DNA of 22,734 nt, taken from the NCBI GenBank assembly GCA_046761065.1, contig JBHIFL010000062.1, positions 1 to 22,734 of the forward strand, read 5' to 3'. The translations under genes were made by a program, and so were the position numbers. Source of the DNA: Candidatus Heimdallarchaeota archaeon (lineage in GTDB: Archaea; Asgardarchaeota; Wukongarchaeia; Wukongarchaeales; JBHIFL01). This document shows positions 5,572 to 20,370 of this stretch, one piece after another; the first letter of the stretch is position 1; each line of letters opens with the position of its first letter. The notes beneath the pieces are model-generated. The model did no database searches. It was not told the origin of the DNA and worked only from the letters and a program-made list of their open reading frames with translations.

Positions 5572-5894
5572 CCTTTATCATTTTATAACAGCAAATACAA
5601 GCGAAAGCGAAACCTCCCCGCAAGTTGCCACATACACCTCCTATAGATGCGTGTTACATTGTCTGTTATGCTTGCAGTTGCTCCCTCTATTAAACACCCA
5701 ATTCCTACTCCTATAAACCCAATGCGAGTATATGCTCTTTCGTGTCGTCTTGACAGCCTTACCTCTATAAAAGACTATGTGACTCTTCCTCATTCTTGGA
5801 CGTGCGACTTACATCATTAACATTGAAGGAATTTCAGATATTTTTTCCTCTCATTTCTGACCTTGAATGCGCATCGAAGAATCAATTACCGTGC

Positions 5895-6038
5895 TCAAGA
5901 AATTAGTAAATATATAGGGAGCAAATGAACTGCTATCTACAGAAACTCGTGCGCATCGACACGCAGGTTCCTCCCGGGCACAATTATGATCAGGCAAGCT
6001 GGGTAAATGGAAGTATTCCCAAAATGCTGGCAGATTAA
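5895..6038 (+). pseudogene. N-terminal remnant of an M20 (ArgE/DapE-like) metallopeptidase
   Basis: Frame from 5913 reads YREQMNCYLQKLVRIDTQVPPGHNYDQ, matching the M20 N-terminal pattern 'LxxLVxIxTxxPPGxNY'; it stops at TAA 6036-6038 and no catalytic core follows. Confidence 0.55.
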
Positions 6039-6086
6039 CAACCAATTAAGTTAAAAAGTTACACAGCCGTGATGACATTTAGTAGT

Positions 6087-6577
6087 ATGGTGGAGCCCTT
6101 GCGAAAAGGATTTGGTGAGGAACATCAACTTTGTGACTTTGGACAGAATAAATTCATCGTATTATACTTGGTAACGTAGCTTATGGATTCTTTCCAGGTT
6201 CATAGGCCCACGTTTCTAATAACTTCTTCTCATTGGAGGTTCCAAGGTTCATTCGTGATCATTTGTTTGATTATTAGCATTTACCTTACGTGGGGCGCTC
6301 ACAAAGCGGTTTTTAATGACACCCTACTGAACCGCAAGTAATTGATTTTGGGGTTTTTAGCATTGTGTGTCACCCTATGTATCTTGGAGTACTCCTAATG
6401 ATGATTGGACTTTTCTTTTAGTCACTTTCGTTGTCATCACTATGCATCTAGGTCGTGTTCTTTTACATCTATGACCAAATGGCTAGTTACAAGGAAGGGG
6501 ACCTGATCCGGATATTTGGAGAAGATTACATAGAGTATTAGCTTAGAATAGGGAAATGGTTCCCCATGTTGCTGTAA
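6087..6577 (+). pseudogene. Isoprenylcysteine carboxyl methyltransferase (ICMT/PEMT) family pseudogene
   Basis: MVEPLRKGFGEEHQLCDFGQ..VT*LMDSF...AHKAVF[frameshift ~6322]EPQVIDFGVFSIVCHPMYLG...FF*S...CI*V...MASYKEGDLIRIFGEDYIEY*LRIGKWFP. Degenerate RHPMY and EExxL..FG..Y..Y motifs; TAG stops at 6177, 6419, 6449 and 6539. Confidence 0.85.
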
Positions 6578-6583
6578 CGGATA

Positions 6584-6600
6584 ATAAATAAAAAAAAAGA
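6584..6600 (-). terminator. Oligo-T tract, probable archaeal terminator of the 6653 gene
   Basis: A9 run on + (6590-6598), read as T9 on -, ~55 nt past the stop at 6653. Confidence 0.45.
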
Positions 6601-6652
6601 AGAGCGGGGTTTGAGCCACGCTAAGCGCATCTCAACTAGCTGTTGTTGTATC

Positions 6653-7204
6653 TTAATTAATTCGGAATGTGCCCGGGGCATATTGAGGGGCACCGAATGG
6701 ATACCATTCAATAATGCCACTCATGTGCACACTGCGACCTTCCCACATCGAGAAGTCCCCACACGCTTCTTCGACGTTGCCGTTCATATGGTATTTACTG
6801 GTTTTTAGATTGGTTTGGCCTTCGTCATATCCCCAAAGGAATGGTTGACCAACCACCAAAAGTGTCAGTACCCCATCCTCATTAAATTCAAATTGAAAAT
6901 TGGCCATATCGTATATCTCCCATATTTCTTCGAAGAAATGGATGTTATTTCCTTTGTAGGGAGGTGTAACGAACGCCTTTCCTGAGCCAATAGCGAAGAA
7001 TAACATGCCGTACACTTCGCCATCGATGGTAATGGTTCCGACCCAATCCGGTATTGCTTCTTGTGGTCCGGGCCATCCCAGATTAAACTGCAAGTCCATA
7101 GTTCCTCTTAGCGGCTTCATAGCATGGACCGGTACTACAGGGACTAACACCAGTATTATTCCTAATGCCACCAGTAAAATACGTGCTCTCCTAACCGCGT
7201 TCAC
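6653..7204 (-). CDS. Secreted hypothetical protein; true start probably near 7195-7204, not 7360
   Basis: GGAGGTGA SD next to (V)RRARILLVALGIILVLVPVVPVHA (signal peptide with VHA cleavage site), then a beta-rich soluble domain. Confidence 0.75.
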   Translation of the reverse strand: MNAVRRARILLVALGIILVLVPVVPVHAMKPLRGTMDLQFNLGWPGPQEAIPDWVGTITIDGEVYGMLFFAIGSGKAFVTPPYKGNNIHFFEEIWEIYDMANFQFEFNEDGVLTLLVVGQPFLWGYDEGQTNLKTSKYHMNGNVEEACGDFSMWEGRSVHMSGIIEWYPFGAPQYAPGTFRIN

Positions 7205-7467
7205 CTCCTCTGAAGTTCTTCCCTTTACTTTATGTAAACACAAGCTGTTAATTCGCGCTGTGATCATAGGAAGGAATTGGTCACTATTAATAGGTGCTGG
7301 GAACAAGTGACCAGCAAGTGACCACTGTATATTTAGCAGAATGTATTCTCGATCCTCCACTCACGAAAAATTGCATACATGTTCTTGGTTTTCTTCCTCC
7401 GCTTGAGAGAATGCTCATAATTTGGAAGAAGAATCTTAATATCCTATAAAATCTCAAGATGTGGATC

Positions 7468-9603
7468 TTACCCGTCAGAAAGGGGAATTACTCTCAATTG
7501 CCTCCCATACCCTTCATCTAATTCTTCGATTATTCCTTGGTGAATTAAGTTATTCACGCGTTCTCGAATGATTCGCCTTGAGGCACGGCCTCTCTGGGTT
7601 CTAACTTCCTCGGTTAATTGAGAGATATTTAATCGATCTTTTCTCTCTAAACAACTGATTATAACTGTAGAAATGGCATCGTATTTGAGATAAGGATATT
7701 TGCGGATAATTCTATCTTTCAATGATACGGGGTGTGTTTTCTTGGAGCTAGGATCTTCAATGATTTCAACAGAATTACTTATCACTTTTGAGAGATTATC
7801 AGTAATTTCATTCATACGCTTGCGAATCATGCGAACCACTTGGGCTTCCACGCCAGCCAATTCACTGACTTCATCGGGGAGCGCTTTTCGAGCTTGGAGG
7901 ACCTTCCATTGGTTGAGTTGACTTAGTAATATTTCTTGTTCGTTGGAAATGCTCCGAGCCAATAGTTGCAGCCCTTGGTTGCCTGCGATGGCTTGTGCTT
8001 GGGTGAACAATCGGCGGGCGCGCGGTACGTCTAGTTCGAGGAGGACAAGCTTGGCTTGCAACAAATAGGTTTCAGCAAGTAGAAAATGAGACTGTTGTGT
8101 CTTAGCTACTTCAAGGAGGCGACTCGTCACTGCTTGGATCTCGCGAAAGATTTCCGGATCTTCGGACGTTTTGTACTCGAAGAACAGTAATTCGCAAAGA
8201 TGGAGGCTTGCTAGAACCCAAAGTTCAAAGGACAGGGCCTGATCTCCTACGAGTTGCTGAAAGAGGATTTGCGCATGCATTTTATCCCGCATCCGAGGGC
8301 TCGCCTTGAGCACTAAGGCTCGAGCGAGGTGATATACCAGATCTGTGAACTTGTTAACTACTTTGTCCTGGAGCTCCTTGAGCTGCTGCTGAAAGCGGCG
8401 CGCGGTCTTAAGATTACCCAGTTCGAGGGATATGCTAACCAAATAAAAGAGGCTGATAGCGATGAATAGATCGTTTCCTAATTCCTTTTGAACCTTCAAA
8501 CCTTTTATCATATATTCGAACGCTGCTTCTAACTGACCTTTTTTCATGTGTGTAATCCCGAGGTGGTTAAGACACCACCCAATCCCTACCTGATACCTTT
8601 GCTCCTCTGAAAAAGCCAATGCTTTCTGAAACGACTCTAAGGCGTGTTCCAATTCGCCTTTCAGTAAATAAATACGCCCGAGTTGCATGAAACAGTTAGA
8701 TTCCGCAATAGTCCCAGAAATTCCCAGTTGCTCAGTTATCGCCAAACTGTTTTGAAGTACCTCCAAAGCATACTCCAATTCGCCTTTTTGTATGGAAACT
8801 AAGCCGATAAAGGAGAAAGCCCAGGCCATCCCGTGTTGGATTCCCAACTGCTCATAAATGGCCAAGCTTTGCTGAAAACATTCTAAGGCACGCTCCCTTT
8901 CTCCTTGAAGTGAGTAAGTCCAACCGAGACATAAGAATGAATGGGCGATCTCCAGTGGATGTTTCAGGCGTTCTCTAATCGTCAATCTTTGCTGTAAGGA
9001 GTCTACTGATCGTTCGTATTTTGTTTGATACAGATAAGCCCAACCGAGATAATAGAGCGAATGGGCGATCTCTTGAGGTTTGCCCCACTCCTCGCGAAGT
9101 ATTAGACTCTGCTGAAGGCACTCTATAGCACGCTCTATTGGTCCCGTATACGCGTAAATCCCACCTTCGAGCGCCAGTAACGTCGCCTCACGTCCGATAA
9201 GATCTGAGCTCTTGGCACTTGTAAGGGATGCCAGCATGGTCTTTCCTTGGTCAATTAAGTGAAGGCATGTCTCTGATTTCCACAGCTCTAGCCAAGCTTC
9301 AGCCATGACGCTGAGTGCATCAACCCCGATCAACGGCTGGTTCAGGTCTTGACTCGCCTTGACTAGCTGATTTGCTACATCTTGCGCCTTCTTAATGTCC
9401 AACTGGGCCAAGATGCGACATTTGAGCAGTTGGCTCTGTAACTGTGCAAGCTGGGAGACGTCCTCTTGAGTTTCCAACTGATCCAGATGCTTCAGAGCTT
9501 CCTGGAACTTACCGTGCCAGAATAAGTGCTCTGCTTGCCGGATAGGCTCTTGTTGGGCAGGATCGGTAGAACCGCCTGCATCCTCTTGTCGCACCACTTT
9601 CAC
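7468..9603 (-). CDS. Tetratricopeptide repeat protein with a C-terminal winged-helix domain (711 aa)
   Basis: ~40-aa TPR units (IAHSLYYLGWAY / IAHSFLCLGWTY; ATGGGCGATCTC at 8941 and 9061, 120 nt apart), ALVLKASPRMRDK helix block, C-terminal LNISQLTEEVR...RRIIRERVNNLIHQGII wHTH. Confidence 0.9.
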   Translation of the reverse strand: MKVVRQEDAGGSTDPAQQEPIRQAEHLFWHGKFQEALKHLDQLETQEDVSQLAQLQSQLLKCRILAQLDIKKAQDVANQLVKASQDLNQPLIGVDALSVMAEAWLELWKSETCLHLIDQGKTMLASLTSAKSSDLIGREATLLALEGGIYAYTGPIERAIECLQQSLILREEWGKPQEIAHSLYYLGWAYLYQTKYERSVDSLQQRLTIRERLKHPLEIAHSFLCLGWTYSLQGERERALECFQQSLAIYEQLGIQHGMAWAFSFIGLVSIQKGELEYALEVLQNSLAITEQLGISGTIAESNCFMQLGRIYLLKGELEHALESFQKALAFSEEQRYQVGIGWCLNHLGITHMKKGQLEAAFEYMIKGLKVQKELGNDLFIAISLFYLVSISLELGNLKTARRFQQQLKELQDKVVNKFTDLVYHLARALVLKASPRMRDKMHAQILFQQLVGDQALSFELWVLASLHLCELLFFEYKTSEDPEIFREIQAVTSRLLEVAKTQQSHFLLAETYLLQAKLVLLELDVPRARRLFTQAQAIAGNQGLQLLARSISNEQEILLSQLNQWKVLQARKALPDEVSELAGVEAQVVRMIRKRMNEITDNLSKVISNSVEIIEDPSSKKTHPVSLKDRIIRKYPYLKYDAISTVIISCLERKDRLNISQLTEEVRTQRGRASRRIIRERVNNLIHQGIIEELDEGYGRQLRVIPLSDG

Positions 9604-10009
9604 ACCCCCAAGTGGGAACGTCTAAGGTGGCATGAGACGAAATCTCCCTAACAGCTAGTATTTGAAGACATTCGATGGAGTACCACCCAAGATGTGGGAT
9701 GCTGCAGCACTTTATTGTTATATTTGTGGCAGATGATATAAGTTTTATGGGTTTTTAGTTCTTTAATGGGACTTAAAAACTGGAACAAGGACGAGTTCAG
9801 GGGTTTAACAACCAAGAGTTATTAAACAGAACTCCCGTCAGTCGGCGGTGCCATATTACTCTGATTATGAACAAAGAAATTCAAGATATCTTGCGAACAT
9901 CTCACCCCAAAAATCAACGGAATAGTTGCCCTGCTTTTCATTCATTTGGGATGTGGTGTACCGTAACAATATATTACTTAATGTGTCTTATTGTGATATA
10001 AAAGCCGGT

Positions 10010-10414
10010 ATGATGCCCATGGAACCCCCAGATATGGAACGGTTAACGCAAGAGATTCAGCGTGCTTGCCTCGGCTACTTAGATCAGGTTGGGTTCGTGC
10101 TACTTTTTGGTTCGACATCCGAGGGCAACGCCACGCCCCTATCAGATGTCGATCTCGCTATCTGCTACCTGGGCACCCCGCCGGAGGCCTTCCAGTTTTT
10201 GAAGTGGTTTCTGGGCGGCTCGATGCCCAATACGATGTGAAGATCTTCCAACTGCTCCCCCCTTTACGTTCAAGTGGAGGCGGTTAAGGGACGCCTGCTC
10301 TTCGGAGACGAGGCGCTCGTTTATGAGGTTGCAACGGCAACGGTACGAGAGTACGAAGCGTTCAAGCCATAATACCTTGACTACATCCATCCCTACACCG
10401 AGGTGAGCGAATGA
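10010..10414 (+). pseudogene. Minimal nucleotidyltransferase (MNT/MntA-type antitoxin), disrupted
   Basis: LFGS...SDVDLAI motif; one base missing at ~10203, one extra C in the C6 run 10257-10262, in-frame TAA at 10370. The repaired reading (..YDVKIFQLLPLYVQVEAVKG..YEVATATVREYEAFKP*YLDY..) ends in an ATGA overlap with the HEPN start. Confidence 0.85.
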
Positions 10415-10860
10415 AGCGGAGGTTACGAAGGGAACGGATTCACAAGAAGCTGAAGGACATAAGTGACACGACGACGATTGTAGCCGATCACCTCCCCGAG
10501 GATTTTGACGCTTTCACCCAGCTAGGACTTGTGAAGGATGGCATCTATCAGAAAATTGAGTTCGCAATAGAGTGCATGCTGGATGTCTTGGCGATTTTGG
10601 ATGCTAATCTCGCCTTAGGCGTCCCTGGAAATGAGGGAGCCATCATTGGACACGTAGAACAGAAAAACATCATAGACCACAACCACGCAGAGAAGGTCCG
10701 GGAAATGCGCGGGTTCCGCAATCTCCTCATTCATCGGTACAGCGATATCAACGATCGGCTGGCCTTTCATACCCTGAAGGAGCACCTCACCGATTTTGAT
10801 GAGTTCATCCGGATCATCGAACGCTTCCTTGCGACAGTAAATCCCGATAACCCACCATAG
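10411..10860 (+). CDS. HEPN (DUF86/HepT-like) RNase toxin
   Basis: GFRNLLIHRY is an intact RX4HXY motif; GAGGTGA SD; translationally coupled to the MNT gene. Confidence 0.92.
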   Translation: MKRRLRRERIHKKLKDISDTTTIVADHLPEDFDAFTQLGLVKDGIYQKIEFAIECMLDVLAILDANLALGVPGNEGAIIGHVEQKNIIDHNHAEKVREMRGFRNLLIHRYSDINDRLAFHTLKEHLTDFDEFIRIIERFLATVNPDNPP

Positions 10861-10980
10861 CAGAGGAAGGCCTGGCAATCGGCCCTTATTTCTAGAGGCT
10901 GCTAAAACAGAGAGCATAGATAGCGGAAAGACAGAGGGCTACCCAAATACACTCCTAATTGAAAAATCATTCCACCTTTT

Positions 10981-11225
10981 ATGAGGAATAGTATTGCAAC
11001 ACTACTTGGTGAGAGGCTACAAGAAGCTGCAGATATAGCATCAAAAAGATAGAAACAACCCGACACAGAGCCTTAAATAAAACAGTGAAAAAATATGGAG
11101 CAGAGGACGTTTGGCACATACTACAAGCCCAGGTAGTCTTTAAAAAACGAAAACCGCCAGAAGATAAGACTATTTTTGAATAGGACCGAGGGTGGCTAAC
11201 AAAGTCGTTCAAGTCCAAATATCAC
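10981..11225 (+). pseudogene. DUF5771-like remnant
   Basis: GERLQEA[frameshift ~11030]YSIKKIETTRHRALNKTVKKYGAEDVWHILQAQVVFKKRKPPEDKTIFE*DRGWLTKSF resembles the DUF5771 pattern (GY..K...RxRAL.KAV..YG...V...L.A.......P....IF..DR.W); TAG at 11181. Recognised by eye only. Confidence 0.6.
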
Positions 11226-11699
11226 CAACTGAAGCAATTGAAGCATGAAATTCTAGGAGTGAAGCAGAATAAGCGCGTAGGATGGCGGGTGGCTAGTGAA
11301 AAAAATGAAATATCAAACATATCAAACACAGAGAAAACGCTACAGCACTTTTTTCTTCGAGCAAGGGGTAACAGGCCCACTCTAATACTTATTTTGTTTG
11401 TTGAAAAAGTGCGTTCGCCTGCGGTGAAATTTGTTTATATTCCTGTCCCCAATCTTTTTGAGAGAACAGTGCTTTTATCTTTATATGTCCCGGTTTTCCT
11501 CAAACATGGTTTCTGAATCCCTCCACATTTTGCTCTACTCCCTGAGCGCCACTGGGCTCAGCCACCTACACATTGTCCTGCTTGTGGAACTGGGACTCTG
11601 AACCCGGTTTGGCACCGCGTACACGTATTATTGCCAAACGATTCCTAGGTGGCTCCCTACTATCGGACGCACAGCTCGCACCCCGTTGGAACGGACCAA

Positions 11700-13109
11700 T
11701 GACTGACCTCCACCCTCGTCTCCCCGCCCCACCCCTCTCCCGCCTCGACCCCACCGATGCACCGCCACCTCCCTCTCTCCCCCGCCCCCCCTTGTGCCCT
11801 AACGCAACACACATAAACTCCCCCTTCCACCCTACCTCCTACTAGGAGTCGACCTACCATGCCCTCGACCTTCCTCCGCGCCTTCAAACCCTTCATGGGC
11901 TTCGTCCCCGAAGTCAAAAAACCCGAGGTCGAAGTCCCCTTCAACCGGAAACTCATCTACACCTTCCTCGCCCTCATCACCTACTTCATCATGTCCTCCA
12001 TCACCATCTATGGCATCGAAATCCAACAAGGCGGCACCGACCCCTTCTACTGGGTCCGCACCATCATGGCCTCCTCCCGCGGCACCCTCGCCGAACTCGG
12101 CATCGGCCCCATCGTCACCGCCGGCCTCATCATGCAGATCCTCGTCGGCTCCAAAATCATTAACGTCGACATGGCCGACCCCGAAGACCGCTCCCTCTAC
12201 ACCGGTGTCCAAAAGGTCCTCGCCGTCTTTATGACCATCTTCGAAGCCTTCGCCTACATCCTCGGCGGCGCCTACGGCGACCTCGGCCTCAACCAGGTCG
12301 TCCTCGTCCTCACTCAGCTCATCGCCGCCGGCCTCGTCATCATCCTCCTCGACGAAATGGTCCAGAAAGGCTGGGGCCTTGGCTCCGGCATCTCCCTCTT
12401 CATCGCCGCTGGCGTCGCCCAGCAAATCATGTGGAACGCCTTCGCCCTCATCCAGTCCACGACCGACACCTTTTACCACGGCGCCATCGTTGCCTTTCTC
12501 CAAGCCCTCTTCGGCGCCGGCGCCGTCCGCGCCACCCTCATCCGCGCCGCTGGCACCCCTGACATCCTCGGCGTCTTCGCTACCATCGCCGTCTTCCTCA
12601 TCGTCATCTACTTCGAAGCCATGCGCATCGAAATCCCCGTCCAGTACGCCCGCTACCGCGGCCTTCGCGGTAAATACCCCATCAAACTCCTCTACGTCTC
12701 CAACATCCCCGTCATCCTCGCCTCCGCCGTCTTCGCCGACATCTTCTTCGTCGCCAAAATGTTCCACAACCGCTGGGGGGACAACTTCTTCGTCCGCCTC
12801 CTCGGCACCTTCAACGACAAAGGGAGCCCCGAAGGCGGCCTCGCCTACTTCATCAGCCCCCCCCGCGGCCCGCAAGAGGTCCTCGCCGAACCCCTCCACG
12901 CCCTCATCTACGCCGCCATCCTCATCATCCTCTGCATCGGCTTCTCCAAAATGTGGCTCGAAACCGCCGGCATGGGCCCCGCCACCGTCGCCCAACAGCT
13001 CATCGACGCCGGCCTCCAGGTCCCCGCCTTCCGCCGCAAGTCCAAAGTCATGGAAAAGATCCTCGCCCGCTTCATCCCCACCGCCGCCGTCATCGGCGGC
13101 CTCTTCATC
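11700..13109 (+). other. Strongly C-skewed tract covering the upstream non-coding DNA and most of secY
   Basis: Hand count: 38 of the first 50 secY codons end in C and none end in T; non-coding 11705-11858 is dominated by C runs; abrupt end at 13110. Confidence 0.95.
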
Positions 13110-13271
13110 GGTGTTCTTGCGGCTTCTGCCGACTTTTTGGGAGCGCTCGGGACTGGAACTGGGATACTCCTCACGGTCTCCATACTTAAGCAATATGCTG
13201 AACTTTTAGCCAAGGAACAAGCGGCGGAGATGCACCCAGCAATGCGAGAATTTCTGGGTATTTTAGGATAG
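11859..13271 (+). CDS. secY: Preprotein translocase subunit SecY / Sec61alpha
   Basis: DPFYWVRTIMASSRGTLAELGIGPIVTAGLIMQ, LLDEMVQKGWGLGSGISLFIA, YPIKLLYVSNIPVIL, ADFLGALGTGTGILL; ~10 TM segments; AGGAG SD before the ATG. Confidence 0.98.
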   Translation: MPSTFLRAFKPFMGFVPEVKKPEVEVPFNRKLIYTFLALITYFIMSSITIYGIEIQQGGTDPFYWVRTIMASSRGTLAELGIGPIVTAGLIMQILVGSKIINVDMADPEDRSLYTGVQKVLAVFMTIFEAFAYILGGAYGDLGLNQVVLVLTQLIAAGLVIILLDEMVQKGWGLGSGISLFIAAGVAQQIMWNAFALIQSTTDTFYHGAIVAFLQALFGAGAVRATLIRAAGTPDILGVFATIAVFLIVIYFEAMRIEIPVQYARYRGLRGKYPIKLLYVSNIPVILASAVFADIFFVAKMFHNRWGDNFFVRLLGTFNDKGSPEGGLAYFISPPRGPQEVLAEPLHALIYAAILIILCIGFSKMWLETAGMGPATVAQQLIDAGLQVPAFRRKSKVMEKILARFIPTAAVIGGLFIGVLAASADFLGALGTGTGILLTVSILKQYAELLAKEQAAEMHPAMREFLGILG

Positions 13272-13342
13272 GAGCACGGAGATACGCCTAGAACGGATAT
13301 CAGTACTAAAGAAGAGGAATCTCGCGATTTCAAAAAAAATTC

Positions 13343-13367
13343 AAAAGGAGTCCGCTTTTCCTTTTTT
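13343..13367 (+). terminator. Probable secY terminator (short inverted repeat plus T tracts)
   Basis: AAAAGGA-gtccgcttt-TCCTTTTTT, ~70-95 nt after the stop. Confidence 0.4.
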
Positions 13368-13726
13368 ACATAACAAATACACTTAATTAAGTTCTTTTCA
13401 CTATAAAAAAGGCATCAAATTAATCTATTTGATAGAAGAAGGTGACTTTGTTAAAAATTCGAATTATATGTTTTGAAAGGACAGATTTCGTAAATTAGAG
13501 AAAATTGCTTATACTGTTCGAGTACCCAAGAACCCAAACAAAAGGGAATTGAGATTGGGAAACCAGTTTAAACGATAACAATTCTATAAATTTTAAAAGC
13601 GGATTTTTGAATTCTTAAACCAAATTTTTGTGAGTAATGATATTAAAACTATTATTTCTTAATTTAGGCTGAAAATTTTGTGTTTTTGGTGTAGGATTAA
13701 CAGAGTATGTAGGAGTATTTAAAGTT

Positions 13727-13744
13727 TGTTCCAAAATTGGAACA
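13727..13744. promoter_or_regulatory. Perfect 8-2-8 inverted repeat in the AT-rich intergenic region; candidate protein-binding site
   Basis: TGTTCCAA-AA-TTGGAACA. Confidence 0.4.
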
Positions 13745-13788
13745 TTTGTATTTTAAAATAGCCTTTATATTGAAAAAGAAGCTCAGAC

Positions 13789-13829
13789 GACAAAACTCCA
13801 ACCCCCCATATTTATCCTTGGAGTTTGTC
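13789..13829. repeat. Imperfect inverted repeat just downstream of the LAGLIDADG stop
   Basis: GACAAAACTCCAA ... TTGGAGTTTGTC (one-base bulge, 16-nt loop). Confidence 0.5.
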
Positions 13830-13836
13830 CCGCGAG

Positions 13837-15138
13837 TTATTCAAAGTTTTTAGGTAAAAATGAGTTCCAGTCTTCTAATAAGTTAATTTCTTCTTTTCGG
13901 GTGAGTGGGAGCCATGCTGACTCATAAACAAAGTAGGTACGGAGATAGTCACGGAGGAGTTTGTGTTTAGTATCGTATCCACCATTTGTTCGTGTTAAAC
14001 TTTGAAACCCGAAAAGTTGGTGAACTTTTTCAACTGTTTGTTCAAGGTCGCGATAGTGTCCCCGATGTTTACCAGTTGTCACTGCAATGCCATTTTTGGT
14101 AGGAGACAAGTATTTTAAGAGTATCAGCACTTGTTTTGTGGGTTTCAATGGTAAATGTATGGGATAGCTTGCATGAGGGTAGACAAATTTTGCGTGATGT
14201 GTAATTAAGTAGGGATATGCATCGTCTCCGAACATGGTCAGAAGGTGTAATACTCTTATTCGTTGATCTTTTATTATCACATGAAGCTTAGGAAGTAACG
14301 CGAGGTTCAAATATCCTTTTTCCGTCAAAGAACTCGACTTCACCCCTTTGAATACAGTGACCTTTGTACCTTGCCTTAGTAGATTGAGACATTGTTGTTG
14401 CTTGTTTGGGTGCCACGACCCAACAAGCTGGGAAAAAACCTTGTAGCTGCCAATTTTCAGCTGAATTGTATTACCTTTCTTATAAAAATGCGTATAATAG
14501 TTCAGCTCATGTTGTTCAAGGAAATATTCGAAATCTCGGATTAACTGATCTGAAACCGTACCAAACTGCATGGTTTGACTGTATGAGCCATCGGTATCAA
14601 AGAGCCCCCGCCAATAGAATCGTTCTAGTTTTGAATTTTTCAGAATCAGAGGACAGCGTAATACATGATATTTCTTACCGTATGGCTGGTCTGTTAGCAA
14701 ATTAAGAAGGCGACCTGCCCAGACTGATTTAATAAAGAGAATATACACGCCCCTTGAGCCCCGAACGATTTTGGGGCGCCCTCCAAACAGGGTAGTGGTT
14801 AACTCGAGGAGTTTTCGGATAAATGCAGGATAATTATCTATAATGGAGATATGAGTTCGAGTGAGGCTTCCATCGCCAGCACAAACTCCTAGGAAATAGG
14901 CTAATTTAGGAGATAGATGAATCGGCATACGGAAAGTAATGTGTTTAAAAGACTCCCAAGAAGTGTAAGAAAGCCAAGTTGCTAAAGCCTTCCGTCTGTT
15001 TTGGGTGAGTTCTGCTAACACACGTACAATAACAAAAGGAAGTCTCTTTTGGTGAATGTATTTTCGTAAAATCCTTTCAAAATACGTTGGATCTTTGGGA
15101 TACACATCATCCAAATAGTCTTTGGTCTTTAAAACCAA
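13837..15138 (-). CDS. Free-standing LAGLIDADG endonuclease-family protein (two motifs plus a C-terminal extension)
   Basis: LAYFLGVCAGDGSL and FYWRGLFDTDGSY motifs; no intein splice-junction residues (no N-terminal Cys block, no terminal HN). Confidence 0.88.
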   Translation of the reverse strand: MVLKTKDYLDDVYPKDPTYFERILRKYIHQKRLPFVIVRVLAELTQNRRKALATWLSYTSWESFKHITFRMPIHLSPKLAYFLGVCAGDGSLTRTHISIIDNYPAFIRKLLELTTTLFGGRPKIVRGSRGVYILFIKSVWAGRLLNLLTDQPYGKKYHVLRCPLILKNSKLERFYWRGLFDTDGSYSQTMQFGTVSDQLIRDFEYFLEQHELNYYTHFYKKGNTIQLKIGSYKVFSQLVGSWHPNKQQQCLNLLRQGTKVTVFKGVKSSSLTEKGYLNLALLPKLHVIIKDQRIRVLHLLTMFGDDAYPYLITHHAKFVYPHASYPIHLPLKPTKQVLILLKYLSPTKNGIAVTTGKHRGHYRDLEQTVEKVHQLFGFQSLTRTNGGYDTKHKLLRDYLRTYFVYESAWLPLTRKEEINLLEDWNSFLPKNFE

Positions 15139-15398
15139 TATTCAAATTTTTCTTTGATAAGATCTTTCAAAGGCTTTGTTAAATGAATATAGGGCATTCT
15201 CGCAAAAATCCTATCCCGTTTGGATGTTCTAATGAAATCTATTTTCCTTACAAGGGCCCCATAGAGATTGAATGTGTTGGAAGTGAGATATAGAACATTG
15301 GATGCATTCTTTTCAAGAAGTACATTAGCTGTAATCCAATTATTTGGTCCTACAGGTTTTTGATCTAATAAGAGAGGGTCATTCTGCCACGTTATCAA
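15129..15398 (-). CDS. Small ORF, or frameshifted N-terminus of the LAGLIDADG protein; begins with the 'WxNDPLLLD..WITAN' module
   Basis: GGTGAT SD followed by TTG at 15398; overlaps the LAGLIDADG ORF by 10 nt; coding status supported by a homologous copy at 18964. Confidence 0.7.
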   Translation of the reverse strand: MITWQNDPLLLDQKPVGPNNWITANVLLEKNASNVLYLTSNTFNLYGALVRKIDFIRTSKRDRIFARMPYIHLTKPLKDLIKEKFEYWF

Positions 15399-15519
15399 CG
15401 CTATCACCTATCAAGTACACTGGTAACCATATATAGACCAACAATTAAGAGATATAATCAAAGAATGGGTTACTCTAATAGAATGGTTATTGCATATAGT
15501 AAGTTCCACTAAACGGCGG

Positions 15520-15723
15520 TCAAGAATCGGAAGGGTTCGAGATTGAAGTTCCAGGCTTCAAAATAATTAGTTCTTTCCCATTTCTGAGGATCATTTCTAG
15601 TTCATCTTGTGGCTTAAGATCCCAAGTATCGGCGACCACCTTGGGGATAGTAATCCGGAGTCCTCCACCCCCTGCAGCACTCACTCTATATTTTTTTAAA
15701 CGAATATCTGCGATTTTACTCAC
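15520..15723 (-). CDS. AbrB/MazE/SpoVT-family DNA-binding protein
   Basis: GGGLRITIPKVVADTWDLKPQDELEM...KELIILKP swapped-hairpin signature. Confidence 0.88.
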   Translation of the reverse strand: MSKIADIRLKKYRVSAAGGGGLRITIPKVVADTWDLKPQDELEMILRNGKELIILKPGTSISNPSDS

Positions 15724-16007
15724 CAGCAGGTGATTTTGTGCCTAATTATTTATCCTTTTTTCGACTGATGAAATGACAGATACCTTTTTATATCCTTATT
15801 TATTACTTATTTTATGACTGATATTTTAGGCATTTTGGAAGGTTAGAGTTATGGAGTCAAAATTTGTCACCCAAATTCGAAGATTACACAATTTTAGTCC
15901 TTTTGTTAGTAGATATTCTAGTCATTGGGATAGTATGTTTTATTCAAGATTTTCCAAAGAGTGTAGGGGTTTTTAAGAATAATTAGCTACATAAAGAAGG
16001 ATTCAAG

Positions 16008-18854
16008 ATGAAAGATAAAGAACACGAATTTGCTACCCGAAACAGTCTGGATGAAATTCTTGAACATATTGAAAACGCTATTAAAAATACAAAATTCTCT
16101 TTGCAAGATGTATTAAATGTGACTAGACACTTACTTGTTTGTGAAAATGGGAGCATAAAAGCAAGGGCTCGAGAAACAATTGCACCGGAAGTAAGAAAAT
16201 ACCTTATAGGAGAAAGGAACCTAAGAGCGATTCTTGAAATCCTTCGGAAGGTCAAAATCATCCGAACGGAAGGACATCGGACCATACCATTAGAAAGAGC
16301 TACTGTGTTGCTTGAATATTTACATTCTTTACCTGAAGAGGCGCAGATTAATAAAAATGTCTGGAGTGAGATCGAAAAAGCAGCAAAAAGAGATGGTCAC
16401 AACCCACGAGAAATTTTTGCAGTAGTGAAACATCTGTTTGTACGAAAGGGTGAATTAATTCGTTGTCGTGGAAGAGAGAGAGTTGTAAAAAAGACTGTGG
16501 CCTATAACATAGGTGGCAAAAAACTCCGGAAGTTACTCGCGTACTTAGAACAGGAAGGAATAATTGGAACTAGCGATAAAACCCGTTTTCCTACTGCACG
16601 AGGCGAACAACTCTACCACCAGCTCGAGCAAGGCCAGATCCCTGCAGAATTACCTCCACGCTCAGATCGCTTGACAAAACAAAAAGAGGACTTAAAACAA
16701 AAGATTGCCCAGTATCTTGTAAAATACAAACAACGTTATGGGAAACCCCCCGATGAGGAAACGGCAAAGCAATTTCTTGTTAAGATATGGGACTTACCTA
16801 CTTTTACACGGAAAGATTTAGTTAAAATGTTAACAGAAAAGACGGGGGTTAACCTTAGTGGAGCAAGCTTGTCTAGATACAAACTCGGCCAAAGGGAAAT
16901 GCCGGAACATATTTGCGCTGCACTACACGAGATATCCATAGAGCTGGATGTAGAACGTCTCAAAGAGCGGCAAAAAACTCAACAAGAGCAACTGAAAAAG
17001 CGGGTGGAAACTGCACGAAACGCGTTGCGAGAGCTCTTTGAGAAAGGATTTTCTTTTCCAAAACTCAGTAAACAACTTGAATCGTTGGGTCTGAATATCT
17101 CTGCACCGGTACTAGCTCATATGTCTAGAGGAACCCAAAAGATTCTTTCACAGCATATCCCGCCCATTCTCGAATTACATCATAGAATTAGCACAAAGTA
17201 TCCTGCAATTCCAACAGTTCAAGAGATTGCAGATATGATCAGTATGCTCAATAATATGGGTTATAGTACACTAGAGTTAGCAAGACAAGTCCATAAAAAA
17301 TTACCTCCCCCGAAGAAGAGAGAGATCCAATTCAATGGTGTATCTAAAGCGTTAAGAGAATTCAAGAAAAAACCAGATCGTAAAAAACCTATTCCTCTTT
17401 CTTTTAGGCTTGCGATTAAGCAAGTCTATGATGAATTATTGCTACAACAGAAGGTCGTAATTGACAAACCAATTCAAAAAATTGCTGAAGAGTTACAAAG
17501 CTTTAATTTGCCAATGGATCCCCGGAAAGCCAAGTTCACGGATGCGAAAATTCGAAAAGGGTTGGCTATCGTCCTTATAGCGAAACGGTTGCAAGAGTAT
17601 TTTTATGGAGAATTTCGAGATCGAAGAACTGACCGACCTGATCACTCACGGGTAGTTGCCCCTATTGGCAGCCGACGAATTGCGGCTTTCGCACGGGCCA
17701 AAGGAGTTGACTTAACCTATAACAATATCGAACAGTTCCAACGAATTCTTGAACAAGGAGGTTTTCTTGAACAGGGATGGCTTCCTTCTGGGAAAAAGAA
17801 ATGGTTAGACAGCATAATAACACTTAGTGACTTATTCTGTCTTGAAATCTTTTATCTCTCACGAATTAGAGGCCTAGATTATCTTAATTTTCAAAAACTT
17901 CTTGGCTTACTAAAGCATGTCACGAAGGCGCCTCAGGCGGCGATTGCGGATCTGTTAGGAATTGATAGAAAGACTTTCTATACGGCAATCTCTAATCTCG
18001 AACGCTATCAAGTGGTTACACGAGACGTCATAGGAGACCTTCTTTTAACTCCGAAGGGAGAACTGTTAGCAAATCGCTTACCCCAAGAAATAGACGAAAT
18101 TATAAACTCCAATGCTGATTTAGAAGAGCAATTGGTTTTAATCGGCAAGATAAATAACTATAAGGCGGCTTTGGGTGATATCCTCTTTGAATATATCCTA
18201 GAACGCCTTTTTCCCGATTATCAGATTATAGCCACGGTTCAACCCGTGGGGGAACATGGAATCGATCGGGTTCTCAAAAAAGAAGAAGAGTTAATCGGTG
18301 TAGAATTGAAAGCTCGAATGAAAAGTGACCCTATCTGGCGAACTGAAAAGACATTTCGAATCCTTCTTCGTCATAACTTAGAAATGAAACGTAATTATGG
18401 GAAGTTTCCTCACCATATGTTATTGATAACTACCGCAGATACCTCTGAATACTTTCAAATGATTGCATATCGAGTAAGTAAGCAAATGAAAACCTACCGG
18501 AGTACTCCCATCTTACGATACACTCAGAATCGACTTGCAGATGGGACGCTTCAACTGCGATTTCTCTACGATTTTTCTAAAAAACGATGGATTCGAAGTG
18601 AAGATTCACTGGAAAACACAGACAATAGTGGTATGCGAAATAAAAAGTGGTTCGAAGTTTTCATAATTGGAGATAAACAAATTCGCGAAGTTATAAAAGA
18701 TAATAACCCAGCACAAGAGCTTCTTGCCCTTCTTCAAACATCACGAGAGGAAGTAGTATTGCCAGAATCCCCTGAAGAGACGTTGGATAATTGGAAGAAG
18801 CGAATCATAATTGGAGGTTCACAATCTCTTAGATCAAAGGATTGTTACACATAA
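16008..18854 (+). CDS. 948-aa multi-HTH/wHTH protein with a C-terminal PD-(D/E)xK restriction-endonuclease-like domain
   Basis: Two N-terminal ~90-aa repeats (RHLLVCENGSIKARARE / KHLFVRKGELIRCRGRE), XRE-like helices (LSGASLSRYKLGQREMP; ISAPVLAHMSRG), MarR-like wHTH (QAAIADLLGIDRKTFYTAISNL..LLTPKG), and nuclease motif LGDILFE...GID...GVELK. Confidence 0.8.
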   Translation: MKDKEHEFATRNSLDEILEHIENAIKNTKFSLQDVLNVTRHLLVCENGSIKARARETIAPEVRKYLIGERNLRAILEILRKVKIIRTEGHRTIPLERATVLLEYLHSLPEEAQINKNVWSEIEKAAKRDGHNPREIFAVVKHLFVRKGELIRCRGRERVVKKTVAYNIGGKKLRKLLAYLEQEGIIGTSDKTRFPTARGEQLYHQLEQGQIPAELPPRSDRLTKQKEDLKQKIAQYLVKYKQRYGKPPDEETAKQFLVKIWDLPTFTRKDLVKMLTEKTGVNLSGASLSRYKLGQREMPEHICAALHEISIELDVERLKERQKTQQEQLKKRVETARNALRELFEKGFSFPKLSKQLESLGLNISAPVLAHMSRGTQKILSQHIPPILELHHRISTKYPAIPTVQEIADMISMLNNMGYSTLELARQVHKKLPPPKKREIQFNGVSKALREFKKKPDRKKPIPLSFRLAIKQVYDELLLQQKVVIDKPIQKIAEELQSFNLPMDPRKAKFTDAKIRKGLAIVLIAKRLQEYFYGEFRDRRTDRPDHSRVVAPIGSRRIAAFARAKGVDLTYNNIEQFQRILEQGGFLEQGWLPSGKKKWLDSIITLSDLFCLEIFYLSRIRGLDYLNFQKLLGLLKHVTKAPQAAIADLLGIDRKTFYTAISNLERYQVVTRDVIGDLLLTPKGELLANRLPQEIDEIINSNADLEEQLVLIGKINNYKAALGDILFEYILERLFPDYQIIATVQPVGEHGIDRVLKKEEELIGVELKARMKSDPIWRTEKTFRILLRHNLEMKRNYGKFPHHMLLITTADTSEYFQMIAYRVSKQMKTYRSTPILRYTQNRLADGTLQLRFLYDFSKKRWIRSEDSLENTDNSGMRNKKWFEVFIIGDKQIREVIKDNNPAQELLALLQTSREEVVLPESPEETLDNWKKRIIIGGSQSLRSKDCYT

Positions 18855-18963
18855 TAACATAATCAGGAAAGGATTTTATCTAAGATTTTTACTTCAGTTA
18901 CCAATTGTGAATATTTGGTGGGAATTTTTTAATTTTCGAGACCTACTAATGATGGGTGATGCT

Positions 18964-20370
18964 TTGTTGAGTTGGTACAATGATCCACTTCTCTTAGATG
19001 AACAACCGGTGAATGCCCAATACTGGATTACGGCAAATGACCTGATCATAGAAGGGGCTCAAGATCGCGTGTTTCTCATGCAAAGTGTATGGAATTCGGG
19101 CCAACAATGGATCGTTACCTGGGATGATCGCCTTTGCGAACAATGCCGCCCAATGGCCAACCAAGTCGTCGGCCTCGATCAGCCCTTTATCACTCCCACC
19201 GGGCAACGAATTTTTGTCTGCCAAGAGATCCACTCCAATTGTCGGTGTACGATCGTCCCCGTGCTCCACGAAAATATCGGGAAAAGCCTGAAAGGGTCAC
19301 CCTTTCTGAAAAGTGCCAAGATGCAAGAGGTCGAGGTCAAAGTGGGGCAATTCAGCAAGGCCTTAGCCATAACCGATATCGTGAGTGGCATGTATGAGGG
19401 GGGCATGAACTGTGAGCAGATTGGAAATGCCTTGGGGACTCCCAAACAGACCATCAGCAATTGGCTCAATACTATGGAGATCCCCCCGCGACCAGTTGGG
19501 TTTTTGCAGAAAGAGAAACGAGAGGTTCAGTATGACGACGAAGGGCATCCCGGCTATTGGGTGACTCACAATGGCGTAAAGATATTCATTCGAGAAGGGG
19601 AGTCTATAGAAGATGCATTTAAGCGATGGAAAGGAAAAAAGAAAGACAAGAACAAAGATAAGAGACGGGATGAGAATAAGGGTGACAAAGAAGCCGAGAA
19701 CGAGGCGTATGAGTCATCCATCAAGCTCCCACTGAAAGAAGGCAAGGTTACGGGATTCCCAAAGGATCTGGATAGTGCGCCTACAGAGATCCATCTGAGC
19801 AAAAAGATTCACGAACTTGGGGATAAGGCGGTCGAAAAGACCAAAGAGTCTGGTGAGGAATGGGGCTTTTTCTTGCACTTTAATGAGGCGGGTAGGCTCC
19901 TCCCTGATAAGTTGAAAAGCCCCTCTGAAAAAGCCTCGGGAGGGGAATGGATTATCCTTGCAGAGTATTCAGCAATCAAAAAACAAGATGAATCCATTCA
20001 AGGGATGTTTCATACCCATCCCAAATCCACAACGTTTCCAAGTGGCGAACTCTCCTTTAGCGAAGGGAATTTGGGAACACTTTTGGAAATGGAAGATGCT
20101 CTCCTTCTTTGTAAAGGTCCTCAAGGGGATTATCTACTCGCACTACGAACACAACAAACTCCTTTGGCTCGCAAAGGAATTGGACGTGAAGCAACTCAGC
20201 TCTATAGGGAAATTGCTCGAGACAAGACAATTCTGAATATAAAAAAGGGACTGGAGCGGAAAACCGCAGTTATTAAAGCCGTATTTGAGACCATGGTAGA
20301 AATATGCAAAAAGTATAATATTGCTTTATACAAAGGAGAAGTGGGGAAACCGGCCAAGAAGGTGATTTAG
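18964..20370 (+). CDS. Phage head-morphogenesis (MuF/SPP1 gp7-like) C-terminal half fused to an HTH, a 'WVTxNG' motif and a JAB/MPN-like domain
   Basis: WIVTWDDRLCEQC...IHSNCRCTIVP (MuF Cys/His motifs); MNCEQIGNALGTPKQTISNWL (HTH); GYWVTHNGVKIFIREGES; EEWGF...FHTHP...SFSEGNL. Start moved to TTG 18964 on the basis of the GGTGAT SD and homology with 15398. Confidence 0.8.
   Translation: MLSWYNDPLLLDEQPVNAQYWITANDLIIEGAQDRVFLMQSVWNSGQQWIVTWDDRLCEQCRPMANQVVGLDQPFITPTGQRIFVCQEIHSNCRCTIVPVLHENIGKSLKGSPFLKSAKMQEVEVKVGQFSKALAITDIVSGMYEGGMNCEQIGNALGTPKQTISNWLNTMEIPPRPVGFLQKEKREVQYDDEGHPGYWVTHNGVKIFIREGESIEDAFKRWKGKKKDKNKDKRRDENKGDKEAENEAYESSIKLPLKEGKVTGFPKDLDSAPTEIHLSKKIHELGDKAVEKTKESGEEWGFFLHFNEAGRLLPDKLKSPSEKASGGEWIILAEYSAIKKQDESIQGMFHTHPKSTTFPSGELSFSEGNLGTLLEMEDALLLCKGPQGDYLLALRTQQTPLARKGIGREATQLYREIARDKTILNIKKGLERKTAVIKAVFETMVEICKKYNIALYKGEVGKPAKKVI

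Follow-up and report, generated by a model that had tools for sequence, protein, structure and literature searches.

The secY locus and its C-saturated block

The stretch of DNA analysed here, called the window below, is the complete contig C62 (22.7 kb) of a metagenome-assembled genome (MAG; G000) of 4.42 Mb in 234 contigs, with a GC content of 42%, a completeness of 91.5% and a contamination of 8.2%. The names of the best SecY and RpoA'' matches affiliate this MAG with the Heimdall/Hod-type Asgard archaea. Our subject is its secY gene (11859..13271, plus strand), which encodes a protein of 470 amino acids with matches to the Pfam families SecY (E=1.7e-69) and Plug_translocon, the Sec61 plug (E=4.5e-13). 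It is the only full-length secY copy in the MAG; the best named relatives of the protein are from Hodarchaeota/Heimdallarchaeota at 55-63% identity, and a look-up of the exact SecY protein gave no match. The gene sits in a small compositional domain, one of a handful in this genome, which begins about 160 nt before the ATG and ends with codon 417. Along the plus strand the locus consists of a non-coding leader rich in C and pyrimidines (11700..11858), a C-saturated block comprising codons 1-417 of secY (11859..13109) and a tail of ordinary composition comprising codons 418-470 (13110..13271), followed after the stop codon by an AT-rich spacer (13272..13836, GC 0.28-0.35). Throughout the text, C-numbers denote contigs of the source MAG and L-numbers denote loci in this analysis.

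The bias of the block is close to saturation. Its 234 four-fold degenerate sites carry C 218 times, T 10 times, G 6 times and A never, which amounts to 93% C, the background frequencies of the genome being A.29, C.23, G.20 and T.28; the chance of finding no A among 234 such sites is about 1e-35. Counting all codons that can end in C (n=352), 331 do so, while 15 end in T, 6 in G and 0 in A. Leucine is written as CTC 42 times and as CTT twice, arginine as CGC 16 times and as CGG once, so that roughly one codon serves each amino acid; AGR codons, TTR codons and, in the four-fold boxes, NNA codons are absent from the codon table of the block. No other among 1,556 open reading frames (ORFs) of at least 300 amino acids has an effective number of codons (Nc) as low as that of secY, which is 26.1 over the gene and 23.6 over the block; the median is 55.7. 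The frequency of C at third positions in secY (0.72) lies about 9 standard deviations above the mean of 3,141 ORFs (0.209, standard deviation 0.057). A two-segment likelihood model places the change-point at codon 418 (window position 13110), with a 2-lnL support interval of 417-418 and a likelihood ratio of 115.6. A preceding reading of the letters alone (the sequence-only reading) had reported that 38 of 40 C-capable codons among the first 50 end in C and none in T, and that from the GGT at 13110 only 9 of 43 do; our recount returned identical numbers. The preference of Lys and Glu for AAA and GAA, which it had also pointed out, is present, but merely follows the genome ratio (A:G of 32:14 against.65/.35).

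The leader shares the bias to a lesser degree. Over its 158 nt (11701-11858) it contains 56% C and 73% pyrimidine, and thus it is C-rich as reported earlier, but to call it equally C-rich was an overstatement given the 93% at four-fold sites. In a three-lineage alignment a conserved promoter-like box is found at 11801-11820 (AAC..AACAYACATAAACTC), and the part of the leader upstream of this putative promoter is biased as well. A GGAG motif is located at 11845-11848, and the secY leaders of the relatives introduced below are likewise CT-rich and 180-500 nt long. The minus strand of the tract carries about 5 G-quadruplex (G4) motifs per kb compared to 0.04 per kb genome-wide, an approximately 125-fold enrichment. 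Opposite to secY an antisense "shadow" ORF of 453 codons, rich in Gly, Asp, Glu, Ala and Val, extends over 11832..13193 on the minus strand. It is a by-product of the NNC codons and stays open because the reverse complement of NNC is GNN, which is never a stop codon. An overlapping antisense gene as the cause of the NNC codons was rejected, since only three codons would need avoiding and the product is of low complexity. In the public gene calls of one relative (L042, 8235-9775) such shadow ORFs stand in the place of secY. Around the tract no repeat pair was found, an 11-nt match between 11585 and 13154 being at chance level, and neither Rfam families nor tRNAs lie at the tract edges.

Independent assemblies of relatives served as the test of an assembly junction at 13110. 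A GenBank metagenome contig (L024, SecY identity 93%) has four-fold C/T/G/A frequencies of 79/12/8/0.4%, an ENA contig (L042, 92%) of 77/14/7/2% and a Logan contig (L013, 88%) of 76/14/10/0%, with A at 0 of 225 sites; in a partial contig that lacks the 3' end (L025, 83%) the frequencies are 54/33/10/2%, and in the window they are 93/4/3/0%. All three relatives that reach the 3' end (L013, L024 and L042) shift to ordinary usage about 53 codons before the stop. Because independent assemblies carry the same structure, the junction at 13110 is no artefact and predates the divergence of these lineages. The alignable DNA of the lineages begins 80-130 nt before the ATG and ends precisely with the secY stop codon, the flanks beyond are not alignable, and the flanks around the biased blocks of the relatives are of ordinary composition. 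In order-level genomes and in a Hodarchaeota MAG with 63% SecY identity the third positions are normal. A donor with genome-wide C usage was found neither among 5.8 billion proteins nor in the metagenome and genome scans. Judged from these alignments and searches, the secY block is neither an assembly chimera nor foreign-donor DNA. The sequence-only reading had already argued against an ordinary high-GC donor, and this holds, as the local block recurs in the relatives and usage is normal in more distant ones; it had also named a misassembly or a matching donor genome as what would overturn it, and the junction recurs in independent assemblies and no such donor came to light.

Parsimony polarisation of changes in the secY alignment shows that the bias is not a frozen relic. 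On the branch leading to the window T>C changes (11-15) exceed C>T changes (5-6), so that this lineage is still gaining C, and the T>C change postulated earlier is real and still running there. L024 and L042 are losing C, by C>T (7-17) and C>G (1-12) changes and almost never to A. Since one lineage gains C while the others lose it, the substitution bias is ongoing and variable between lineages. Amino-acid replacements polarised with outgroups gave no signal (7 versus 7 resolvable sites). A distant lineage (L044, 7813-9255; SecY identity 58%, GC 0.40) has a secY whose four-fold sites are 76-86% purine and A-rich; its polarity is opposite to that of the studied clade, and it has no switch at the tail.

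Strand specificity and further domains in the genome

A genome scan recovered further high-GC, strongly skewed tracts besides secY, with sizes from 1.6 to 10 kb, and the phenomenon is thus not confined to a single site. The largest domain lies on contig C2 and covers EF-1a and S7 (minus strand), rpoA'', L30e, NusA and S12 (plus strand) and rpoA' (minus strand). Its plus strand is rich in G and purines throughout, with a purine fraction of.74-.79 in the spacers, and there is no sign flip. The sister lineages L036 and L038 retain the C2-type domain with the same polarity and the same unusual, divergent gene order, and there it is even more extreme, with four-fold G of.64-.69 and four-fold T of.01 in rpoA''. 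In the more distant and AT-rich L039 the four-fold sites of EF-1a are 88% pyrimidine and those of rpoA'' 77% purine. From the comparison of L036, L038 and L039 it follows that the constant feature is an asymmetry of purines and pyrimidines, and that its C/T or G/A flavour depends on the lineage. In the C2 region (9624-17975, L015) the classical operon rpoA'-rpoA''-L30e-nusA-S12-S7-EF is rearranged: rpoA''-L30e-NusA-S12 is inverted between rpoA' and S7-EF-1a, an order kept in L036, L038 and L039, while rpoB (C20) and EF-2 (C76) sit elsewhere with ordinary composition. In the public gene calls of L036 (12636-15882) and L037 (4039-7099) rpoA' is uncalled or replaced by small ORFs.

For a strand test the sites were split by degeneracy into four-fold sites, two-fold pyrimidine sites and the third positions of Lys, Glu and Gln codons (K/E/Q). 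In genes whose sense strand is C-rich (secY, EF-1a, S7 and rpoA') four-fold C amounts to.59-.93 and A to 0-.04, the two-fold pyrimidine sites are shifted to C, and K/E/Q stay at background. In genes whose sense strand is G-rich (rpoA'', L30e and S12) four-fold G amounts to.48-.59 and T to.03-.10, K/E/Q are shifted to G (.59-.65), and the two-fold pyrimidine sites remain near background (C.26-.55 versus.35, at small n). The two patterns are exact complements, and hence the cause acts on the DNA strand. The bias belongs to the DNA strand and is independent of gene orientation. In proposing a strand-specific process the sequence-only reading was therefore right: the mirror-image genes track the DNA strand and not the sense strand.

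The spectrum is another matter. On the plus strand of secY the signature is strongest for A>C, followed by T>C and G>C, and the partner strand correspondingly changes from any base to G. The earlier proposal combined T>C with G>A, but K/E/Q are at background and four-fold sites exclude A more than any other base (0/234); a G>A pressure would enrich A, and so there is no G>A drive. With this half of the spectrum the proposed deamination of a persistently single-stranded minus strand falls as well, the dominant change being the transversion A>C. For the same reason we do not place the tract with the deamination asymmetry of mitochondrial DNA (mtDNA), G>A plus T>C on the plus strand: T>C is present, but A is found at 0 of 234 sites (0 of 225 in L013). 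An adenine-specific retro-mutagenesis of the type known from diversity-generating retroelements does not fit either. A is kept at 70% of the K/E/Q third positions, and since silent A>G changes there have not occurred, an adenine-specific process is excluded; no template/variable repeat pair was found around the tract, and reverse transcriptase was not searched for. An avoidance of self-pairing at the RNA level was likewise dismissed as the sole cause, with A being excluded more than G in the C-rich mRNAs and the strands being exact complements.

Highly expressed genes provide a control. Usage at four-fold sites is ordinary in EF-2, in RpoB, in the L2/L3/L4 cluster and in the two thermosome genes, and because of this, expression level or codon adaptation is not the cause. 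Together with the mirror-image genes at C2 and the biased leader and spacers, these genes bear out the earlier statement that translational selection is not at work. A strand skew shared by neighbouring genes of opposite orientation was not seen as a genome-wide correlation. The Orc1/Cdc6 genes (C2 at 50.7 kb, C19 and C28) adjoin none of the tracts and none is on C62; a replication start or stop near 13110, which had been offered as a candidate, has no origin marker nearby. We do not count the tracts as replication-linked GC skew, as they measure only 1.6-10 kb and only the one on C33 flips its sign, beside an AT-rich repeat region. Nor do they belong to transcription-associated asymmetry, the sense strands being C-rich in some genes and G-rich in others; the helicases of C12, the HEAT protein of C33 and the POR genes of C13 have purine-rich sense strands. 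The C12 tract (5800-13600, L016) is 7-8 kb long with a C-rich plus strand, and the sense strands of all its genes are G-rich. These genes encode a DEAD/Helicase_C-MZB helicase, a protein of 1,301 amino acids without a Pfam match and a metallophosphoesterase, a set that resembles a defence system.

The edges of the domains are informative. The last ~35 codons of EF-1a are unbiased in four lineages, and synteny is lost right there, about 70 nt past the stop codon. The internal genes of the C2 domain (S7, rpoA', rpoA'', NusA and S12) are biased up to their stop codons, and thus the switch is a property of the domain edge and not of gene ends. An unrelated NTP-transferase gene next to the domain shows a weaker, decaying form of the same bias.

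The tail of secY and the zone behind it

The protein encoded by the tail (13110..13271) is near-invariant between the lineages, and its synonymous sites are near saturation. No pair is further apart in the tract than the window and L013, and none is closer in the tail. Here 52 of 53 amino acids are identical between them (binomial p=0.004) and 20 of 52 codons differ synonymously (.38), while the other pairs differ at 29-31 of 51-53 codons (.57-.58). Set against the five other pairs pooled (149/259), a Fisher estimate made by hand gives p ~0.01, and a formal test of the tract-by-tail interaction gives z=3.35. There is thus moderate evidence, from these codon differences, that the secY tail has had its own history, separate from that of the tract.

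The very end of the gene is part of a repeated unit. An att-like repeat (13207..13331, plus strand; the right end is approximate and was set by eye) consists of the last ~62 nt of secY and a downstream motif (GGAGAY...CTCGCGATTTC), which in other copies of the unit is followed by a T-run. The genome contains at least 10 further copies of this ~62-nt gene end (...AKEQAAEMHPAMREFLGILG*), all of them diverged. We located such relics on C124 (916-987, 2129-2197 and 5167-5274), on C134 (283-345 and 4154-4216), on C144 (2663-2719 and 3785-3844) and on C84 (6770-6820, 12929-13000 and 14120-14179). Within each contig they have the same orientation and are 1.1-6 kb apart, and small cargo genes lie between them, among them PIN toxins, a DUF5615-PIN gene and a phosphorylase-like gene. 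The relic also occurs alone, without secY, on the metagenome contigs L029-L033. The secY relics are thus direct repeats of a gene 3' end that bound inserted DNA, as att-type repeats do, and the pattern looks like a tandem accretion of small elements behind secY. A longer relic on C124, seen with tblastn (residues 407-470), was dropped, since only ~22 residues align. In L028 (2100-2464; SDBU01079177.1) a truncated 3' copy of secY comprising codons ~396-470 is found. An in-frame fusion joins it to ~55 codons of unrelated sequence in which C-ending codons are used as well, and its downstream flank is the same as in L013; this copy may be a displaced secY end or a deletion derivative. Position 13110 is the conserved outer edge of the compositional domain, and the tail belongs to a recombining zone.

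Two ORFs convergent with secY follow the spacer on the minus strand, one with a LAGLIDADG domain (13837-15138; Pfam LAGLIDADG_3, E=5.4e-6) and a small one (15129-15407). Their homologues in L042/L043 are 43% and 51% identical, respectively, and that of the small ORF has a weak MazE/AbrB-type match. Further downstream a protein of 948 amino acids is encoded on the plus strand (16008..18854), a conserved companion of the secY 3' end that belongs to no Pfam or PHROG family. Its homologue in L024 (38% identity) lies 294 nt downstream of secY, the one in L042/L043 (37%) is convergent with secY, so that the module is inverted compared to the window, and the one in the distant L044 (27%) is 199 nt from secY. 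The family is single copy in the MAG and has 9 representatives among 1.84 billion proteins; the closest homologue (L041) is on a contig of 3.8 kb that contains neither secY nor a relic. The module thus consists of a LAGLIDADG protein, a small AbrB/MazE-like ORF and a protein of ~870-955 amino acids, lies beside the secY 3' end in either orientation and spans 13837-18854 in the window, 2440-5016 in L024, 2645-7868 in L042, 313-5536 in L043 and 5001-7613 in L044. With 37-38% identity between lineages whose SecY proteins are 92-93% identical, the 948-aa protein evolves fast, and by analogy it would resemble selfish or defence genes in this respect. With respect to co-conversion of the homing type, a LAGLIDADG_3 gene, a predicted endonuclease, adjoins the conserved secY, and the module is conserved. 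Next to it lies a MuF-like head-morphogenesis protein, a virus-like cargo gene (18811..20370, plus strand; PHROG head-morphogenesis/minor-head, E=1e-8 to 7e-7). On the other side of secY, about 1 kb upstream, a gene for a HepT-like (HEPN) ribonuclease toxin is found at 10411-10860, for which no partner MNT antitoxin was identified.

Origin and meaning of the strand asymmetry

The secY tract carries a locus-specific and DNA-strand-specific bias that is still active, and its sharp edge is bounded by a recombining zone. For the cause, we see about an even chance that a mutational domain as a whole accounts for the data, in which a long-acting substitution bias would convert purines to pyrimidines on one strand at every site that is free to vary. 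The two strands would be treated asymmetrically and recurrently, starting at the sharp edge. A tentative and more specific version invokes recurrent breaks at this edge, followed by resection. The strand that ends 3' at the break would stay single-stranded and lose purines, which are labile bases, the resected strand would be refilled with a G-biased error spectrum, and the gap closest to the break would be copied from a donor and become the tail. Behind secY, repeated site-specific insertions may have left the ~62-nt relics together with a fast-evolving module of the nuclease type, and it is partly shown that the tail zone is exchanged too often to build up the bias. Break and resection would explain both the independence from gene orientation and the discordant tail. 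The polarity of the sharp edge agrees with resection at C62, C2, C12, C33 and C95, the far edge being fuzzy. A further, rather speculative possibility is that such domains maintain themselves and are inherited as local mutational attractors, a new locus-specific mutational regime. The G/purine-rich strand may fold into a G4 or triplex structure, or resynthesis may favour it once a resident nuclease module has broken the DNA; the partner strand would then be repeatedly single-stranded and shed its remaining purines, so that the asymmetry is reinforced. A domain of this kind would stay with its DNA segment when the genome is rearranged, and only recombination that keeps replacing the sequence would set its limits.

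Several observations weigh against the mutational explanation or parts of it. Repair errors that saturate synonymous sites demand very frequent events, and we know of no archaeal polymerase with the required G-insertion bias. The difference between 93% C at four-fold sites and 56% C in the leader is not predicted by a pure mutation model unless the leader is constrained. Along the block the saturation is uniform, with no gradient with distance from 13110. The sequence-only reading had anchored the process near this position; the edge is indeed conserved between lineages, but a recombination-active zone explains it at least equally well. This zone raises difficulties of its own: the relics begin at ~13207 and not at 13110, so that they do not directly delimit the exchanged segment, no integrase was found beside them (four tyrosine-recombinase matches are on other contigs, and the relic contigs are short), and the genealogy of the tail rests on 52 codons, with tract distances compressed by shared or convergent C usage. 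At the second domain, EF-1a has no 3' relics and no companion nuclease at its edge, and the genealogy of its tail is uninformative, as there are too few sites. In L044 the companion gene is present and the pyrimidine bias absent. The suspicion that the downstream nuclease genes matter thus stands in part, in that the gene of the 948-aa protein (with LAGLIDADG in two relatives) is conserved beside secY, but it is weakened by the unbiased L044 and by the second domain, which lacks such a neighbour. In the minor tracts edge sharpness is mixed: C95 fits, the C44 tract has its sharper edge on the wrong side, and C13 extends beyond the locus.

The main rival is selection on a property of the DNA itself, which we consider unlikely. 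It would keep one strand rich in purines or G, with a polarity that is arbitrary for each locus and maintained once it is set; candidate properties are a homopurine-homopyrimidine duplex, a G-quadruplex or R-loop on the G-rich strand and an exclusion of histone chromatin. Selection would account for a polarity that persists locus by locus between deeply diverged lineages even as the GC flavour shifts, for a bias that moves with the secY segment despite unalignable flanks, for four-fold sites more saturated than the leader and for the density of minus-strand G4 motifs (~5/kb versus 0.04/kb); it also fits the sisters that lose C by changing to T or G and almost never to A. However, it offers no rationale why secY, EF-1a, S7, S12 and RpoA are affected and RpoB, EF-2, L2-L4 and the thermosome are not. 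A is excluded far more than G, although both are equally wrong for the purity of a purine or pyrimidine strand, the AT-rich L039 cannot form G4 structures, and the decaying bias of the unrelated neighbour gene looks regional rather than functional.

An asymmetry linked to replication and amplified locally, by exposure of the lagging-strand template at stalled forks or by an unrecognised origin or terminus, seems improbable to us. It would make gene orientation irrelevant, as observed, the sign flip of C33 beside AT-rich repeats is origin-like, and a comparable orientation-independent saw-tooth in a giant virus has been interpreted as linked to replication. But domains of 1.6-10 kb are not of replichore scale, the strand skew of neighbouring genes is not correlated genome-wide, the C2 domain has no sign flip, and 30 kb separate the C2 tract from the Orc1/Cdc6 gene closest to it, with none on C62. 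The secY segment moreover retains its polarity while its surroundings rearrange. Transcription, with purine lesions that persist on the non-template strand while the template is repaired, would yield a pyrimidine-rich sense strand like that of secY, EF-1a, S7 and rpoA', and the bias does begin near the promoter region. This we regard as quite improbable in view of the purine-rich sense strands of rpoA'', L30e, NusA, S12, the C12 helicases, the C33 HEAT gene and the C13 POR genes; high expression leaves other genes unaffected, the bias already covers the leader in front of the putative promoter, and it stops when 160 nt of the secY coding sequence are still to come. Very improbable, too, is that the blocks were imported or gene-converted from a related replicon with asymmetric replication, such as a plasmid, a virus or a large extrachromosomal element. 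The block sizes of 1.6-10 kb, the sharp edges inside genes and the mosaic genes are what recombination imports typically look like, mobile DNA surrounds secY and the MAG has 8% contamination, but the searches of 5.8 billion proteins and of metagenomes and genomes yielded no donor, close relatives show the same mosaic, the SecY protein is of the Hod/Heimdall type, the edges are conserved across lineages and the directional change continues in situ. Translational selection for C-ending codons or an assembly chimera inside secY is barely credible and, as far as sequences can tell, refuted: C-ending codons with AAA and GAA do resemble the optimal codons of some organisms and the MAG is fragmented, yet L30e and S12 are oppositely biased, EF-2, RpoB, L2-L4 and the thermosomes are unbiased, non-coding DNA is affected, and other independent assemblies show the same junction.

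Compared to known systems, the tracts share with the GC skew of bacterial ori/ter regions and with the H/L asymmetry of vertebrate mtDNA that they are bound to the strand, blind to orientation and strongest at synonymous and non-coding sites, and their magnitude (GC skew -0.3 to -0.6) is that of mtDNA. Unlike these, they are local (1.6-10 kb), lack an associated origin marker and are near-saturating, and they are dominated by transversions (A>C) where the ori/ter and mtDNA type consists of the deamination transitions C>T and A>G. In mutT mutants, misincorporation of 8-oxo-dGTP leads to A:T>C:G changes. The strongest change here is likewise A:T>C:G and raises the GC content, but it is confined to few loci and one strand and is accompanied by T>C and G>C. 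Like the GC-skewed R-loop promoters of vertebrate CpG islands, the tracts are kilobase islands with raised GC and strong skew that start near a promoter; in contrast to them, the secY transcript would be rich in C, a polarity that does not favour R-loops, the bias extends over entire operons in either orientation, and the host is an archaeon. The zone behind secY resembles the integrative elements that target the 3' ends of tRNA or protein genes (att sites, tandem accretion) in its ~62-nt copies of the same orientation with cargo between them, in the virus-like genes downstream and in a tail with its own genealogy. It differs from them in that no integrase lies beside the relics and that the switch of composition is ~100 nt upstream of the relic start. 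With free-standing homing endonucleases such as seg/mob of phage T4 it has in common the LAGLIDADG and nuclease-like genes behind an essential gene, their fast evolution and the mosaic gene end. However, the module is missing from the second domain, and homing would explain the mosaic tail but not the biased block of 1.4 kb. In the literature on GC skew and codon usage of Asgard archaea, on strand-asymmetric islands, on secY as an integration target and on purine loading and transversions we found no description of such domains. The phenomenon is of a known kind, a compositional asymmetry of DNA strands, and it is distinct in being of kilobase scale, near-saturating, dominated by transversions and conserved at its loci.

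Usually, strand asymmetry is a weak by-product of replication or transcription at the scale of the chromosome. Here the same essential genes have kept it throughout a clade of Heimdall/Hod-type Asgard archaea, and the pattern points to an undescribed local substitution process that is specific for one strand. There are practical consequences. The genes secY, EF-1a, RpoA, S7, S12, L30e and NusA are standard phylogenomic markers, and extreme lineage-specific composition can bias the nucleotide trees, and perhaps the amino-acid trees, of lineages that are used to place the eukaryotes. Strand-biased genes also defeat standard gene callers, and binning based on composition may misplace such segments. 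A selective bias would reveal a requirement that core genes place on DNA structure, and a mutational one would reveal a local process of DNA metabolism that can be read from the sequence, such as recurrent breaks, resynthesis of one strand or long-lived single-strandedness. Should the domains indeed prove to be self-maintaining attractors, they would represent a new mutational regime in the closest archaeal relatives of eukaryotes.

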